Sequence record: MZ726793.1
DNA: 64,000 bases
Origin: Escherichia phage vB_EcoM_ASO2A
Strand: one strand, 5' to 3'
Part shown: piece after piece, positions 4,742-63,326 of the stretch
Position numbering within the stretch: the stretch's first letter is position 1
Layout of the letters: the number at the start of each line of letters is the position of its first letter
Position numbers and translations under genes: made by a program
The notes under the pieces: generated by a model
What the model was told of the DNA's origin: nothing
Database searches by the model: none
Seen by the model: only the letters and a program-made list of their open reading frames with translations

Positions 4742-5110
4742 ATGAGCAAATCAGCAATTAAAGCACTTGAAAAAGCACAAGAAGTGATCGCAACGTCAAC
4801 CACTGGCGCAAAGGTTAATCTTGTTGGTTATCTGACAGATGAAACTATCCGTAAAAATTGGCGTAATGCTGATTTACTGGCTTGCTTATTGATTAATAGT
4901 GTCGCTAATGCTTTCCAGTGCGAAACAGCCGAGAGCCTGGAGGAAAACTTGTTTGATAATATGGATCAAGCCATTGAAACCTATATACAATCAAACATGG
5001 ATAGCTGGAACAGTAAAACATGGCCCGACAATTTACGCGATACAACTGATCAACTGATCCGCCTTGCCCTGATGGTTGAACGCGATAACGTTCACAACCG
5101 CACAAAGTAA
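4742..5110 (+). CDS. hypothetical protein
   Basis: 122-aa ORF; RBS AAGAGGAAAATAAAA-ATG. Confidence 0.55.
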   Translation: MSKSAIKALEKAQEVIATSTTGAKVNLVGYLTDETIRKNWRNADLLACLLINSVANAFQCETAESLEENLFDNMDQAIETYIQSNMDSWNSKTWPDNLRDTTDQLIRLALMVERDNVHNRTK

Positions 5111-54641: not shown

Positions 54642-55046
54642 TTATTGAAGTTTAAGTGAACCACGAAGACGTTTCTCTTGCTGATCACGAATATATTGTG
54701 GAACCTCGTGAATTGAATCATTACCGTGCCTATTTTCAACAACTAAAGAGATAACTTGATAACCAAACTCTTCAGCAAGAGTTAGATAAGGTTTAAGTTC
54801 TTTCTCTGTGGTTGAAGTGTTAGAAACAATAATCTTGTTAAGATTAGATGCCATAGCATCACGAACAATACTCTGACACCATGCGTGTGCTTTACCTACG
54901 TTTTCTGGCTTCCAATCGTAAACACCACTTTCTGTGTAATGATATTGATCTGCCTCACAGATAGGCCAATAACCTTCAGAAATAATTTCTGCTACTGTAG
55001 ATTTACCAGCACCTGAAACGCCACGTAAAATGATAAGTTGTTTCAT
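54642..55046 (-). CDS. P-loop polynucleotide kinase-like protein
   Basis: 134 aa; Walker A GVSGAGKST; directly downstream of the RNA ligase. Confidence 0.55.
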   Translation of the reverse strand: MKQLIILRGVSGAGKSTVAEIISEGYWPICEADQYHYTESGVYDWKPENVGKAHAWCQSIVRDAMASNLNKIIVSNTSTTEKELKPYLTLAEEFGYQVISLVVENRHGNDSIHEVPQYIRDQQEKRLRGSLKLQ

Positions 55047-55979
55047 TTATCCTCCAAAGAAGTTTTCGATTTTTTCACGTCGCTCCTGCTGATTTAAAGC
55101 AGCCCATTGAGTCTTCGTAAAATTATTTCGAATCCATTCTAACAAAGCGTAATATTCTTCGTCAACAATTTGTTTGGCATTTTTTGGATTATCCCAAATC
55201 AGATCCCACTTTTTATCTCCACCACGCATAAGAAACTTCTTAGTAAGATAGTGTGGTGATTTAATTTTTAAAAGTAAGTTGAACGGATAGTTTGTTTCAC
55301 GAACTACAAATCCTTCGTGTTTACAATGTTTAGACATTTCAACAACATCTGAAAACTTAACCATTGGATGAACTTCAGGACGCTTAAATTTGGTGACAGA
55401 AGCAATTCCATCAAGAGCACCTTCAGGTAACATAAAACTTGTCCCATCAGGATTTTGAATTCTGGCACCAATTAAGTATGCACCTGGTTCTTCTTCGACA
55501 ATATGCGGATCAGAAGGATCACAGATTTCAAAAAGGAAAGTTGCTTTTGCACTCTCTATCCATTTGATGAAATGTTCTATGTCATCACACTCTGAAATAA
55601 TATGATTCTTTGCAATACTTGCAAAATCTGATTCAAGGCTTCCTGTTGTCGATACAATAAGTTGACCTTTATATACACCTACAGAGGCCATAAAACCATT
55701 TACTTTACGAACCACATCTACAAATTCATCCGCTGGTAGATCTGTGCCATTCTCAAAACGATTAAAAATCTTAGTGAAAGGCCAAATAACAACATTGTCA
55801 TCATCGTCAACAACGATTCCGCGACATTCTAGAAGACGAGAATCAATGTTCCACAGGTTATCCCAGAAAACTTTGTTCTTATACTTAAGAACAGATAGAC
55901 CAGAATACTCTCCTTCTTTATATGTTTTCTTATGAACTAAACCTTTTTCAACCAAATCGTCGCAATTAAATTTAGCCAC
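55047..55979 (-). CDS. RNA ligase (T4 Rnl1-like)
   Basis: 310 aa; LECRGIVV, KIFN and KVNGF...STTGS align with T4 RnlA ALECRGIMF, KFFN and KEDGSL...SKGS. Confidence 0.65.
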   Translation of the reverse strand: MAKFNCDDLVEKGLVHKKTYKEGEYSGLSVLKYKNKVFWDNLWNIDSRLLECRGIVVDDDDNVVIWPFTKIFNRFENGTDLPADEFVDVVRKVNGFMASVGVYKGQLIVSTTGSLESDFASIAKNHIISECDDIEHFIKWIESAKATFLFEICDPSDPHIVEEEPGAYLIGARIQNPDGTSFMLPEGALDGIASVTKFKRPEVHPMVKFSDVVEMSKHCKHEGFVVRETNYPFNLLLKIKSPHYLTKKFLMRGGDKKWDLIWDNPKNAKQIVDEEYYALLEWIRNNFTKTQWAALNQQERREKIENFFGG

Positions 55980-55980
55980 A

Positions 55981-56532
55981 TTACTCTCCTTTGATTATTT
56001 TGTGATGGTCTACAGTTACGATATCTCGTTTACTCATCATAGAAATTATCTCATCAAAATGTAAGATTTTTCCGTGTGCATCCCAACCCACATCTAACAT
56101 TTTACCATAAGCTTCATCAGGGAAAGATCCGTGGGAATGCCCGTGTAGCATGATTGATCCACGACCTTGCTTATTCCAGGAGGCCATAGGGTAATGGCTT
56201 AAGACGAAGAACAGCTTCTGATATTTCACTTCGTCATAATACACCACTTCTCCATACTCTGCAAGCACTTCTCGGTGTTTGCTGTAATCATGGTTCCCAA
56301 CACAATAAGTGATATCCCCTTGGAGGCGGGAAGCAATCTTACGGGTATCTTCTTCAGTCCCGAAACAGAAGTCACCCAAATGCCACATCTTGACACCTGG
56401 ACTCGTAGCGCATTTATTCCATGCTTCGATCAGTGCTTCTGTCATGTGGTCCATATCTTCCCACGGTCGATATTCAGGAGCAAACTCTCGTATACGTTTG
56501 TGCATAAAATGCAAATCACTTGTAATAAACAT
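55981..56532 (-). CDS. calcineurin-like metallophosphoesterase
   Basis: 183 aa; motifs DLHF, GDFCFG, GNHD, HGHSH. Confidence 0.7.
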   Translation of the reverse strand: MFITSDLHFMHKRIREFAPEYRPWEDMDHMTEALIEAWNKCATSPGVKMWHLGDFCFGTEEDTRKIASRLQGDITYCVGNHDYSKHREVLAEYGEVVYYDEVKYQKLFFVLSHYPMASWNKQGRGSIMLHGHSHGSFPDEAYGKMLDVGWDAHGKILHFDEIISMMSKRDIVTVDHHKIIKGE

Positions 56533-60917: not shown

Positions 60918-60947
60918 TTGACAAACGTATCCTTCATATGTTAGGAT
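60918..60947 (+). promoter_or_regulatory. sigma70-like promoter (conserved ACTATTGACAA box)
   Basis: AACTATTGACAA recurs at 61501 and 62471; -10-like TTAGGAT. Confidence 0.5.
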
Positions 60948-61156: not shown

Positions 61157-61231
61157 GGCCCTGTAGCTCAATGGGAGAGCTGTCGGCTCATAACCGATAG
61201 GTAGCTGGATCGAAACCAGCCAGGGCCACCA
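61157..61231 (+). tRNA. tRNA-Met (anticodon CAT)
   Basis: Manual cloverleaf: acceptor GGCCCTG/CAGGGCC, D-stem GCTC/GAGC, loop CTCATAA, T-arm GCTGG/CCAGC, encoded CCA. Confidence 0.8.
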
Positions 61232-61233
61232 AC

Positions 61234-61308
61234 GTCTTTATGGTGTAATGGATAGCACAGGAGTCTTCTAAACTCTTAGTCAAGGTTCGATTCCTTGTAA
61301 AGACACCA
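61234..61308 (+). tRNA. tRNA-Arg (anticodon TCT)
   Basis: Acceptor GTCTTTA/TAAAGAC, loop CTTCTAA, T-arm CAAGG-TTCGATT-CCTTG, CCA. Confidence 0.8.
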
Positions 61309-61503
61309 GAACATTTTAACATGAATTAGCTCAAGTGATTTGAACCCACTACTGATCATGGTGGCAGAGAATGAGGCAAGTATGTCAGACATTATAAACA
61401 AAGGCCACGGTTATATTAGAAGACATAAATGCTCGAAGAGCACCGTTCGTGGAGAACGGGGTTGGTGGAGTCACCATTCATGGTAAAATGTTTTAAAAAA
61501 CTA

Positions 61504-61533
61504 TTGACAACTAACATTATTTTATGTTAGATT
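61504..61533 (+). promoter_or_regulatory. sigma70-like promoter (ACTATTGACAA box) for tRNA transcription
   Basis: TTGACA, 17 nt, TTAGATT; tRNA-Ser begins about 9 nt downstream. Confidence 0.5.
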
Positions 61534-61541
61534 ATAAGTAT

Positions 61542-61632
61542 GGAAGGGCAAATCGACGTGGCGACGAAAACGGTCTTGAAAACCGCCGAGCTTGAAAGAG
61601 CCTTGGGAGTTCGACTCTCCCTCCTTCCGCCA
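61542..61632 (+). tRNA. tRNA-Ser (anticodon TGA), long variable arm
   Basis: Acceptor GGAAGGG/TCCTTCC, loop CTTGAAA, T-arm GGGAG-TTCGACT-CTCCC, CCA; D-arm atypical. Confidence 0.7.
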
Positions 61633-61637
61633 GATTA

Positions 61638-61723
61638 GGTAGATTGGTGAAATGGTAGCCACGACAGTTTGCTAAACTGTAGTCGGAAACGGCGTGTAGG
61701 TTCGAGTCCTACATCTACCGCCA
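61638..61723 (+). tRNA. tRNA-Ser (anticodon GCT), long variable arm
   Basis: Acceptor GGTAGAT/ATCTACC, arm ACAGT-TTGCTAA-ACTGT, 15-nt variable arm, CCA. Confidence 0.8.
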
Positions 61724-61853
61724 AGTTCTTTTTAATATAGCTTACTTTAGCAGAGTAAATCTTCGGCAAGTGGCGGTAACCACTTTACCGATAACTCATA
61801 GTTAGTGGTGTGAACACTGGCTATTTTAAAAAGAATTTAAATATTAGTATTTA

Positions 61854-61941
61854 GGTGAGTTAATTCCGTAGGGGTAGCGGGGCAGACTGTAAATCTGTTA
61901 TCATTGCGATTCGGGTGGTTCGACTCCATCACTCACCACCA
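61854..61941 (+). tRNA. tRNA-Tyr (anticodon GTA), long variable arm
   Basis: Acceptor GGTGAGT/ACTCACC, GCAGA-CTGTAAA-TCTGT as in E. coli tRNA-Tyr, CCA. Confidence 0.8.
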
Positions 61942-61947
61942 AATTAA

Positions 61948-62033
61948 GATGAGTTGGCTGAATGGTTTAAGCGGCGGACTGTTAATCCGTGTTCGAAAGA
62001 ACGATATAGGTTCAAATCCTATACTCATCGCCA
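61948..62033 (+). tRNA. tRNA with anticodon GTT (Asn by position) and an atypical long variable arm
   Basis: Acceptor GATGAGT/ACTCATC, arm GCGGA-CTGTTAA-TCCGT, 15-nt variable arm (GTTC-GAAA-GAAC), CCA. Confidence 0.5.
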
Positions 62034-62040
62034 GAATTAT

Positions 62041-62117
62041 GGACTTGTAGAGTTAAGGTAAACCCCCAGTCGCCAAGAGGCTTCTGGAATTGCAGGTATC
62101 GAATCCTGCCGAGTCCC
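62041..62117 (+). ncRNA. tRNA-like element (degenerate, no canonical anticodon arm)
   Basis: Acceptor-like GGACTTG/CGAGTCC and T-arm-like GCAGG-TATCGAAT-CCTGC (8-nt loop); no 5-7-5 anticodon arm; no CCA. Confidence 0.2.
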
Positions 62118-62123
62118 AGCTTT

Positions 62124-62198
62124 GCTCCTATAGTATAATGGCTATTACAACGGTTTTGTAATCCGTGGATCTCTGTTCGATTCAGAGTGGGAGCACCA
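62124..62198 (+). tRNA. tRNA-Thr (anticodon TGT)
   Basis: Acceptor GCTCCTA/TGGGAGC, loop TTTGTAA, T-arm CTCTG-TTCGATT-CAGAG, CCA. Confidence 0.75.
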
Positions 62199-62473
62199 AC
62201 ACAACATTAAGGGCACTGTGATTGATCGTCGTATCCTGTGCACAAGGTCTGTTCGAAAGACAGTGTTCTTAGTATTGTGTTGATCACACAAAAAGAGTTA
62301 CCTGAAACTTGACCGGAGTAGGGTTGGATGGGGCAAAAGAAGAAGCGGCTCTCCCATCGACAGCAACGAAGAATAATATTTGACTTTGGTTTTGTATTAT
62401 TTTAAGTTAGCTTACCGAACGTAGGGCTAGTCACCCAACGGGATACTCGTCACTGTCCCACTCAATAAAACTA

Positions 62474-62503
62474 TTGACAACCAATAGTAAAATGTAGTAT
62501 AGT
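62474..62503 (+). promoter_or_regulatory. sigma70-like promoter (ACTATTGACAA box) upstream of tRNA-Gly
   Basis: TTGACA, 18 nt, TATAGT; then GTAGGGCG and tRNA-Gly. Confidence 0.5.
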
Positions 62504-62514
62504 AAAGATGTAGG

Positions 62515-62588
62515 GCGTTCTTGGTGTAGCGGTAGCATTCCGTCCTTCCAAGTCGGCGGCACGAGTTCGATCCTCGTAGAACGCTCCA
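62515..62588 (+). tRNA. tRNA-Gly (anticodon TCC)
   Basis: Acceptor GCGTTCT/AGAACGC, loop CTTCCAA (stem has one U-U mismatch), T-arm ACGAG-TTCGATC-CTCGT, CCA. Confidence 0.65.
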
Positions 62589-62686
62589 AATTATTTAATA
62601 AAGGGTTGCCAGAAAACTTTCTCTTTTACTCATGGTTTTCTCCTTCTCTCACACCTCTTCTGGTTGCCCTTCATTAAATGATTTAT

Positions 62687-62762
62687 TGGTTTGTAGTGTA
62701 GTCCGGTAGCACACGACACTTTGACTGTCGTAGGTTTGGTTCAAATCCAGACAGACCAGCCA
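62687..62762 (+). tRNA. tRNA-Gln (anticodon TTG)
   Basis: Starts with U like E. coli tRNA-Gln; acceptor TGGTTTG/CAGACCA, arm CGACA-CTTTGAC-TGTCG, CCA. Confidence 0.75.
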
Positions 62763-62855
62763 TATAACAAAGGTGAGTCACTACCTCAAGTGTGAAGTTA
62801 AAAACGAGGAGCCGCCGAACACTTTCTTTTGCGGTGTACCTTTAGAATGTTATGA

Positions 62856-62932
62856 CGGAATTTAGCTCAGTTTGGTAGAGTGTACGCTTTGGGAGCGTAT
62901 TGTCGCAGGTTCGAATCCTGCAATTCCGACCA
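62856..62932 (+). tRNA. tRNA-Pro (anticodon TGG)
   Basis: Starts with C like E. coli tRNA-Pro; acceptor CGGAATT/AATTCCG, arm TACGC-TTTGGGA-GCGTA, T-arm GCAGG-TTCGAAT-CCTGC, CCA. Confidence 0.8.
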
Positions 62933-62938
62933 ATTAAA

Positions 62939-63012
62939 TGTTTCGTAGTTCAATGGTAGAACCCACGACTGATAATCGTGAGATACAAGTTCGATTCTTG
63001 TCGAAACAACCA
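62939..63012 (+). tRNA. tRNA-Ile (anticodon GAT)
   Basis: Acceptor TGTTTCG/CGAAACA, D-stem GTTC/GAAC, arm CACGA-CTGATAA-TCGTG, CCA. Confidence 0.75.
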
Positions 63013-63014
63013 GT

Positions 63015-63084
63015 TTCCCGTTAGACTTACAGGATAAGAGTTCCACAATTTATTGTGACGCTGGTTCGAATCCAGCACGGGATA
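63015..63084 (+). ncRNA. tRNA-like element with aberrant anticodon arm (possible pseudo-tRNA)
   Basis: Canonical T-arm GCTGG-TTCGAAT-CCAGC and 6-bp acceptor, but the anticodon region folds as CACAA-TTTA-TTGTG; no CCA. Confidence 0.25.
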
Positions 63085-63090
63085 CATAAT

Positions 63091-63169
63091 AGCGGGATAG
63101 AGGAGTCTGGTCGTCCTCGCCAGTTTCATATGCTGGAGATCATTGGTTCAAATCCAATTCCCGCCTCCA
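63091..63169 (+). tRNA. tRNA with anticodon CAT (Met, or Ile2 if modified)
   Basis: Acceptor AGCGGGA/TCCCGCC (1:72 mismatch), 11-nt D-loop, arm CCAGT-TTCATAT-GCTGG, CCA. Confidence 0.7.
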
Positions 63170-63285
63170 AATATCGCTTGCCAGCGGTATCTTTGAAGAC
63201 CTTGCCTGGTTCCTTCTAAGATGGAGGGGTGCGACTCCTTAACGCACAATTATAATAAAGCATTTCAAATTAACAGTATTTATTA

Positions 63286-63308
63286 GCCTCCTTATTGGAG
63301 GCTTTTTG
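63286..63308 (+). terminator. Rho-independent terminator after the tRNA cluster
   Basis: GCCTCC-TTATT-GGAGGC followed by TTTTT. Confidence 0.65.
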
Positions 63309-63326
63309 CTATCTATTGAATAAAAC

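Follow-up and report, generated by a model that had tools for sequence, protein, structure and literature searches.

In a stretch of 64,000 nucleotides (nt) from Escherichia phage vB_EcoM_ASO2A (MZ726793.1; hereafter the window), we identified three non-canonical members of the transfer RNA (tRNA) cluster, all on the + strand: a tRNA-Asn(GUU) with a class-II-like variable arm at 61948-62033, and two tRNA-like RNAs predicted to be non-decoding, element A at 62041-62117 and element B at 63015-63084. The long arm is the mark of a widespread class of tRNA-Asn carried by phages and mobile tRNA arrays; the arms of this class covary and are usually capped by a GNRA tetraloop. Element A is an ortholog of RNA3 from phage T5 and a new member of that conserved and structured family, while element B defines a sister family of the same kind. 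On balance, we favor a reading in which all three are selected RNA genes within polycistronic tRNA operons, namely a working tRNA-Asn and two mimics, and in which they may take part in counter-defense. An earlier note on this DNA had taken the long arm as unusual for tRNA-Asn and the two elements as degenerate. Its observation was confirmed, all three features being real according to ARAGORN and Rfam for the tRNA-Asn and to folds and a scan for the tRNA "top half" (acceptor and T arm) for elements A and B, whereas its interpretation was only partly supported.

ARAGORN called a tRNA-Asn(gtt) at exactly 61948-62033, and the Rfam tRNA model matched it with 62 bits, aligning a 12-nt insertion in the variable region. 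The minimum free energy (MFE) fold is a cloverleaf with an additional GUUC-GAAA-GAAC hairpin, and all three methods support a 7-base-pair (bp) acceptor stem, 5-bp anticodon and T stems and 7-nt loops. The earlier description of an element that folds well, reads GTT and carries a 15-nt variable arm therefore stands. This arm (61991-62005) consists of a 4-bp stem (61991-61994/61999-62002), a GAAA loop (61995-61998) and three unpaired nucleotides, GAU (62003-62005), in place of the short 4-5 nt variable loop of class I tRNAs. By the textbook, and leaving mitochondria aside, only tRNA-Leu, tRNA-Ser, bacterial tRNA-Tyr and tRNA-Sec have a long variable arm.

The identity of the long-arm tRNA is, judged from its sequence, most probably asparagine. 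In E. coli, asparagine identity consists of the anticodon and G73 (PMC9976931), and the window gene holds both of these recognition elements of asparaginyl-tRNA synthetase (AsnRS), the anticodon GUU at 61981-61983 and the discriminator G73, followed by an encoded CCA. E. coli asnT and serU were taken directly for comparison, and the anticodon arm of the window tRNA, GCGGA-CUGUUAA-UCCGU, was found identical to that of asnT over 17 of 17 nt. Because of the GUU anticodon, G73 and the host-identical anticodon arm, the tRNA is expected to be charged by the host AsnRS and would thus work as a tRNA-Asn reading AAC and AAU codons. While it shares these three features with E. coli asnT/U/V/W, it differs from them in the variable region (15 nt with a hairpin, as compared with 5 nt in E. 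coli), in having a 3-bp D stem, and in its G1-C72 and A2-U71 pairs, where E. coli has U1-A72. Long variable arms on anticodons for class I amino acids are also found in the nematode nev-tRNAs (PMC3333845) and the bacterial allo-tRNAs (PMC5389517). However, these tRNAs retain the identity of Leu or Ser and are charged whatever the anticodon, whereas the Asn identity of the window tRNA is intact and its arm geometry is not tRNA-Ser-like. We found no description of a long-arm tRNA-Asn in the literature.

Full-length homologs of 83-86 nt were identified in phi92 (Justusliebigvirus), in Mydovirus and Seunavirus (Vequintavirinae), and in T5-like Demerecviridae, with arm stems that covary (UUC/GAA, AAC/GUU, UCC/GGA, AGC/GCU, and AGU/ACU). 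A search pattern composed of the Asn anticodon arm and a long gap ahead of the T arm matched at least 120 IMG/VR contigs, as compared with 64 places in 185,579 bacterial and archaeal genomes (one per species). ARAGORN confirmed at least 95 viral and 18 genomic cases as tRNA(gtt) of 79-91 nt, and 12 of these 18 are located in loci with 7 to 36 tRNA genes within 8 kb. The class is thus phage-enriched and nearly absent from the bacterial genomes searched, and the arm is, as had been stated, abnormal for a cellular tRNA-Asn, but it is not peculiar to this phage. Among unselected viral contigs having this Asn anticodon arm, 16 of 120 (~13%) carry a long arm; when only cluster-borne genes in the same sample are counted, roughly 15 are long and 36 short. 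A hairpin of at least 3 bp is formed by 76 of 90 unique long-arm sequences (shuffles: mean 25.7, maximum 36), and GNRA tetraloops occur in 56 of them (shuffle mean 0.7), closed by stems of which 37 are distinct. All 58 long-arm homologs ending in CCA have G73. The architecture of the class appears to be one in which the 5-nt variable loop is swapped for a hairpin of 3-4 bp placed directly on the anticodon stem and followed by ~3 unpaired nt. A BLAST search with the tRNA-Asn and element A against 5,426 E. coli genomes gave no match at E ≤ 0.01, the query being too short for a database of 28 Gb.

Element A folds with a 7-bp acceptor stem (62041-62047/62110-62116), a D-like arm (~62050-62065), a two-part central hairpin (62066-62087) closed by an AAGA loop (62075-62078), and a T arm (62092-62109) with a 5-bp stem and an 8-nt loop, UAUCGAAU (z = -3.6). 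It received no call from ARAGORN and no Rfam 15 match at E ≤ 1. A 3' ACCA is not encoded, as the end reads CGAGUCC-C-AGC with the 7-bp stem, and CCA appears only if the stem is counted as 6 bp without a discriminator. In BLAST searches, element A was found in 87 Phapecoctavirus records, with a diverged copy in 39 Justusliebigvirus records. The T5-like version was obtained from a structure-based scan of inter-tRNA spacers in IMG/VR and was then identified in 354 T5-like phage records. The T5 reference genome carries it directly 3' of tRNA-Asn (NC_005859, 33877-33949), where it is annotated as rna3/T5s07, "RNA3, putative tRNA-like RNA". A covariance model built from four T5-like RNA3 sequences, and no others, matched the window at 62041-62118 with 39.2 bits (E ~1.5e-9) and the phi92 element with 43.3 bits, while true tRNAs all scored lower (≤27 bits). 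Pairing holds in 94.9% of cells across the three lineages, and changes on both sides were observed in 10 of 20 pairs, as compared with 0-3 in slid controls.

T5 RNA3 and element A share the position directly downstream of tRNA-Asn, the D-arm motif GUAGAGUUAAG-UAAACC, the AUUG linker, and the 8-nt T loop YAUCRAAU, and both have a closed hairpin where the anticodon loop would be. In the family as a whole, the D-arm sequence GUAGAGUUAA..AAACC, the AUUG linker, and the T loop are near-invariant, and the central arm varies in sequence and length but always forms a closed hairpin, with 6 bp and a 6-nt loop in T5, 6 bp and a 4-nt loop in phi92, and 4+3 bp and a 4-nt loop in the window, where the arm is 22 nt long and has an internal loop. 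The two RNAs also differ at the 3' end, which is ACCA in RNA3 but lacks a clear discriminator and CCA in the window copy, and compensatory changes distinguish their acceptor and T stems. Element A was located just 3' of tRNA-Asn in each lineage inspected (T5, AKFV33, Bas26, Bas32, Bas33, phi92, and the window), the gap from the CCA of tRNA-Asn being 7 nt in the window and 2-5 nt in the other six. Pattern scans of IMG/VR for the motifs of element A, and for the D-arm motif of element B, returned the same lineages only, in addition to chance matches in a coding gene. We found no description of a function for RNA3 in the literature. A resemblance between the T arm of element A and that of E. coli tRNA-Lys, noticed by hand, was dropped. 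The Justusliebigvirus phage arall (L235, 1398-1492) has element A of the Phapecoctavirus type, and not the phi92 type, which indicates that the two genera have exchanged modules of the tRNA cluster.

Element B has an acceptor stem (63015-63021/63077-63083) of 6 bp with a U1xU72 mismatch, a D arm (63024-63043) with a 3-nt bulge and a GG-containing loop, a central closed hairpin, CACAA-UUUA-UUGUG (63044-63057, loop 63049-63052), and a canonical T arm (63060-63076) with a 5-bp stem (z = -3.0). As for element A, there was no ARAGORN call and no Rfam 15 match at E ≤ 1, and CCA is not encoded in the window copy. Relatives were identified in a group of Vequintavirinae (A7_1, W70, UPEC06, and LTH01) and in the siphovirus phiEB49, where the copy is annotated, ARAGORN-style, as tRNA-Val(AAC). 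In these relatives the central arm has the canonical 17 nt, but the "loop" pairs with itself, and the Vequintavirinae copies also have G33 (CG-UAU-CG and CG-UCU-CG); in the Phapecoctavirus copies the arm is cut to 13-14 nt. A model built from A7_1, UPEC06, and phiEB49 only, and hence from no Phapecoctavirus sequence, matched the window at 63015-63086 with 78.9 bits (E ~2.5e-18), the next best match being tRNA-Ile with 34.6 bits. Pairing was observed in 94.9% of cells, and 6 of 22 pairs are compensatory, as compared with 0-1 in slid controls. The gene upstream of element B is tRNA-Ile in the window, tRNA-Tyr in Vequintavirinae, and tRNA-Arg in phiEB49, which argues that B is maintained in its own right and not through linkage. 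With the independent model, no homolog of B was detected in phi92, T5, Mydovirus, or Seunavirus, and comparison with the T5 tRNA region gave identity in the T arm only.

The anticodon loop of both elements is swapped for a closed hairpin with a loop of 3-6 nt and no U33, and they are thus unable to decode; in the window both loops are 4 nt, including the UUUA loop of element B, as reported in the earlier note. The accompanying statement that acceptor and T arm are kept holds for the folds (acceptor of 6-7 bp and T stem of 5 bp in both), but the T arm of element A, having an 8-nt loop, is not canonical. As for standard identities, ARAGORN and Rfam assigned one to the tRNA-Asn gene, with its long arm retained, and none to A or B. 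The proposal that A and B are decayed pseudo-tRNAs was not supported: uncompensated stem changes and a lack of conservation beyond close relatives, as expected for pseudogenes, were not found, and each family spans several phage families, shows compensatory changes, and was recovered by models built from other lineages. The other suggestion of the earlier note, that they serve as processing decoys, would be a possible role. The two elements thus appear, from these sequence comparisons, to be non-decoding tRNA mimics under structural selection. No consistent ancestral isotype of A or B emerged from a nearest-neighbor comparison with ~1,565 phage tRNAs. YrlA/Y-RNA-like and other Rfam families gave no match on A or B, the sole YrlA match (E 0.39) being located on tRNA-Pro/Ile.

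Small non-tRNA RNAs, some of them tRNA-like, are also found among the tRNA genes of T5 (RNA1 and RNA2, "tRNA-like stable RNA with unknown functions") and T4 (RNAC and RNAD). T5 RNA1 and RNA2 differ from A and B in being longer (103-172 nt) and in lacking sequence similarity, with only generic T arm matches in the T5 region, while T4 RNAC and RNAD were set beside A and B by literature description alone; their roles are unknown according to the literature (PMC3014915, PMC9697503). Non-canonical tRNA-like elements look common in phage tRNA clusters. A "top half" scan of 1.09 Mb of viral tRNA clusters (L016-L135) gave 80 candidates next to called tRNAs that were themselves not called by ARAGORN; these include class II tRNAs that had been missed and elements whose central regions are aberrant. 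In addition, SalP219 (L015:2354-2440) carries an 87-nt tRNA-Lys(UUU) whose D loop contains an inserted hairpin, and VLCpiM5a (L014:2733-2812) has an unannotated tRNA-like element with an aberrant interior in a spacer.

The tRNA cluster of this phAPEC8-like Phapecoctavirus (Stephanstirmvirinae) extends from 61157 to 63169 on the + strand and is 100% identical to that of Escherichia phage MRostami-2023b and 97-99.8% identical to those of phAPEC8-like phages. ARAGORN called ten tRNAs in the window, and the Rfam models contributed a tRNA-Tyr gene (61854-61941, with the match ending at 61938) and one resembling tRNA-Ser(UGA) (61542-61632, with the match ending at 61628). The total of 12 tRNA genes, long-arm tRNA-Asn included, agrees with the eleven canonical tRNAs previously folded by hand, and CCA is encoded in all 12. 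Within the cluster, the "top half" scan of the 64-kb window returned 11 of the 12 called tRNAs, A, B, one alternative acceptor start for B, and nothing else; outside the cluster it gave 11 scattered 6/7-pair matches, about the same number as in shuffles. A consensus scan predicted sigma-70-like promoters at 60918, 61504, and 62474. The second (61504-61533, +; 10/12 with an extended -10) would drive a Ser-Ser-Tyr-Asn-A-Thr unit and the third (62474-62503, +; 11/12) a Gly-Gln-Pro-Ile-B-Met unit, so that A and B are each predicted to lie within a polycistronic transcript. The regions at 61495-61533 and 62465-62503, ahead of the second and third tRNA units, are near-identical (AAAACTATTGACAAC...). 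A hairpin resembling an intrinsic terminator was found by a terminator scan at the end of the cluster (63285-63303, +).

As A and B keep the "top half" and a D arm, they are expected to be substrates for RNase P and 3' processing and would accumulate as L-shaped RNAs of ~70-77 nt. Counter-defense against tRNA-cleaving nucleases is a plausible function for the three features, and the best supported of those considered; the cluster would then form part of the phage answer to host defenses that cleave tRNAs. AriB of the PARIS system cleaves E. coli tRNA-Asn(GUU) at 40|41, with the second subunit contacting D-loop positions 16-17, and T5 tRNAs escape it by substitutions at the cleavage site; the same authors raise the possibility that viral tRNAs act as competitive inhibitors (PMC12409363). 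The tRNA-Asn of the window keeps the host sequence U36-A-A-U-C|C41, and its extra arm begins three nt from the cut site. The arm may alter the surface beside the 40|41 site of the anticodon stem. A and B, for their part, might serve as uncleavable competitors, or as partners for a tRNA-binding protein, which would explain the near-invariant D arms beside covarying stems; this combination suggests a sequence-specific partner and not a purely architectural role. In its most specific form, which we consider unlikely and put forward only tentatively, the reading describes two structural, non-substitutional escapes: the GNRA hairpin would sterically block nucleases like AriB, which bridge the 40|41 site and the D loop, while leaving AsnRS recognition intact, and the mimics of the RNA3 and element B families would be uncleavable competitive inhibitors of tRNA-binding defense or toxin proteins.

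Two alternative Asn alleles were observed at the Cys-Asn-RNA3 locus of T5-like phages. The short allele (T5, NC_005859, positions 4953-5030 of locus L238; Bf23 and VEc33) is 78 nt long, has a substituted cleavage site in the anticodon stem, and is present in ~136 records at ≥90% identity. The long allele (AKFV33, Bas26, Bas32, and Bas33) is 83-86 nt long and has a host-like anticodon arm with an intact site. Kinase, RNA ligase, and phosphoesterase together form an enzyme set for repairing cleaved tRNAs. In the window, 5 kb upstream of the cluster, three adjacent genes on the - strand (54642-56532) encode an AAA_33 P-loop kinase (54642-55046), a T4 Rnl1-family RNA ligase (55047-55979; PF09511, E 2.7e-15), and a calcineurin-like phosphoesterase (metallophosphoesterase; 55981-56532), which suggests exposure of this phage lineage to host nucleases that cleave tRNAs. 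The Justusliebigvirus Nernie is annotated with the same three genes. The isoacceptors by which T5 counters PARIS AriB (tRNA-Lys, Thr, and Asn) and retron-Eco7 (tRNA-Tyr) in the same host are also grouped together here (Tyr-Asn-[A]-Thr; in phi92, Lys lies upstream), in a phage that carries the repair cassette. The T5 tRNAs, however, escape by substitutions at or near the cut site, while the window tRNA differs in the adjacent variable arm.

Several points speak against the counter-defense reading. The link between the arm and nuclease evasion is one that we infer from structure only, and many phage tRNA-Asn with the same intact site, including the 36 cluster-borne ones in our sample, have short arms. 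Long-arm tRNA-Asn also occurs without element A, in Epseptimavirus 26175IV, Mydovirus, and Seunavirus, and the two are thus not obligate partners. Because the mimics lack the anticodon loop that nucleases of the AriB/PrrC type bind, a simple decoy model is weakened, and neither an unambiguous encoded CCA in the window copy of A nor any in that of B was found. T5 RNA3 is itself annotated merely as "putative". Finally, rescue from PARIS is achieved for Bas33 by T5 tRNA-Lys alone, whereas Bas34 needs T5 tRNA-Asn too; Bas33 carries both long-arm tRNA-Asn and RNA3, and on protection by the arm these published phenotypes are equivocal.

The main rivals to counter-defense are that the features are neutral relics and that A and B are punctuation for processing. 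As relics, A and B would be former tRNA genes that lost decoding, and the long arm would be a leftover, for example from a class II tRNA-Tyr(GUA) via A36U and A73G, retained only because the folded core has come to depend on it and serving no adaptive role at present. Descent of B from a true tRNA fits the canonical 17-nt central arm in Vequintavirinae and phiEB49, and for the tRNA-Asn an arm geometry like that of phage tRNA-Tyr (a short stem and ~3 unpaired 3' nt), the adjacency of tRNA-Tyr and tRNA-Asn in the window with six of seven acceptor positions in common, and D arms slightly nearer to class II tRNAs (29/41) point the same way. Decay would not, however, give the overwhelmingly compensatory stem substitutions and almost invariant D arms of A and B across phage families; nor does it account for the peculiar 8-nt T loop of A kept in three lineages or the strong enrichment of GNRA loops in the Asn arm, and the Tyr-ancestry signal is missing in other lineages (acceptor identity of 3-4 of 7, with mixed nearest-neighbor searches). 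We consider this explanation unlikely. As punctuation, A and B would exist only for the RNase P cuts that free the 3' trailers of Asn and Ile and the 5' leaders of Thr and Met, the excised RNAs being inert. The elements do lie 2-7 nt from their neighbors within predicted polycistronic units and have kept acceptor and T arms, exactly what RNase P needs; A is always coupled to tRNA-Asn, and the copies in this phage lack an unambiguous encoded CCA. Yet neighboring true tRNAs in the rest of the cluster are processed with no spacers of this kind, shape by itself would be enough for this role but the D-arm sequences are near-invariant, the upstream neighbors of B differ between phages, and long-arm tRNA-Asn occurs without A. 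Moreover, a 3' CCA, as in mature tRNAs, is encoded in T5 RNA3 and in element B of A7_1 and phiEB49, and we regard a role restricted to punctuation as quite improbable.

Charging by another synthetase was also weighed, as serine identity is set mainly by the variable arm, irrespective of the anticodon. In this case, the class-II arm and G73 would make tRNA(GUU) a substrate of seryl-tRNA synthetase (SerRS) or tyrosyl-tRNA synthetase (TyrRS), which would place Ser or Tyr at Asn codons. Serine identity rests mainly on the variable arm, the anticodon being ignored, and G73 is common to Ser and Asn (PMC9976931). The tRNA-Ser(GCU) of this phage likewise has a 4-bp arm capped by GAAA. In bacterial tRNA-Ser, G2-C71 is conserved. 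This pair is replaced by A-U in the window, which has G1-C72 followed by A2-U71, and is missing in 37 of the 58 long-arm homologs; G1-C72 and G2-C71 are both present in 21, and 27 have U1-A72 as in E. coli asnT. The Asn arms, moreover, have 0/3 unpaired nt and stems of 3-4 bp, as compared with 1/1 and 5-7 bp in tRNA-Ser from the same viral contigs, and on arm geometry and acceptor pairs serylation was counted unlikely. TyrRS and leucyl-tRNA synthetase (LeuRS) need A73, which is never present in the 58 homologs or the window, and the tRNA thus lacks the discriminator of tRNA-Tyr and tRNA-Leu. With both Asn identity elements fully conserved, mistranslation appears very improbable. With regard to the origin of the arm, its geometry is nearest to that of phage tRNA-Tyr, (1,3) unpaired nt being found in 14 of 31 Tyr and (0,3) in 23 of 39 Asn. 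The adjoining tRNA-Tyr and tRNA-Asn of the window, which have the same arm geometry and identical nucleotides at those six acceptor positions, suggest a possible shift from Tyr to Asn via A36U and A73G. The corresponding signal was not seen in the other lineages, and the nearest-neighbor comparison gave no consistent same-genome donor; the leaning of the D arms to class II tRNAs is weak.

Further observations were made in the cluster. The Ser(UGA)-like class II tRNA (61542-61632) was missed by ARAGORN and has tRNA-Sec as its sole Rfam match (37 bits, sub-threshold). Its odd D arm (GCAAAUCGA..GGCGACGAAAA) is kept in two T5-like contigs (L028 and L088), and the phi92 homolog is annotated there as a pseudogene. 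The tRNA(CAU) at 63091-63169 is 79 nt long and mismatched at A1xC72; its D stem of 5 bp carries an enlarged loop, and its discriminator is U. Candidate identities are Met, Ile2, or initiator-like, and its counterpart in RefSeq phAPEC8 is labeled "tRNA-Pseudo-CAT". A weak Rfam match to RyhB at 63256-63310 (29 bits, E 0.013, far under threshold) overlaps the terminator hairpin at the cluster end and most likely reflects just the hairpin and U-run. Records under the names of Campylobacter, Acinetobacter, Pseudomonas, Klebsiella, or Serratia phages share 92-99% identity with E. coli Phapecoctavirus over the compared regions, with 95-99% over the whole cluster falling to 92.5% at element B; these records are probably host mislabels or contaminant isolates.

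In public records the Asn gene is annotated as a plain tRNA-Asn, and A and B carry no annotation. A large phage class with a GNRA-capped arm thus sits in hundreds of genomes under the bare label "tRNA-Asn", and neither mimic is picked up by annotation pipelines, which also overlook several unusual true tRNAs in these phages, themselves candidates for therapy. The mimics bear in three ways on the open question of the small stable RNAs in the tRNA regions of T4 and T5. RNA3 is conserved, and covaries, in both Demerecviridae and Stephanstirmvirinae, where it is physically coupled to tRNA-Asn, and a second family exists alongside it. As PARIS cuts tRNA-Asn three nt from the start of the arm, the proposed protection by the arm is a specific hypothesis that would be directly testable with existing reagents.

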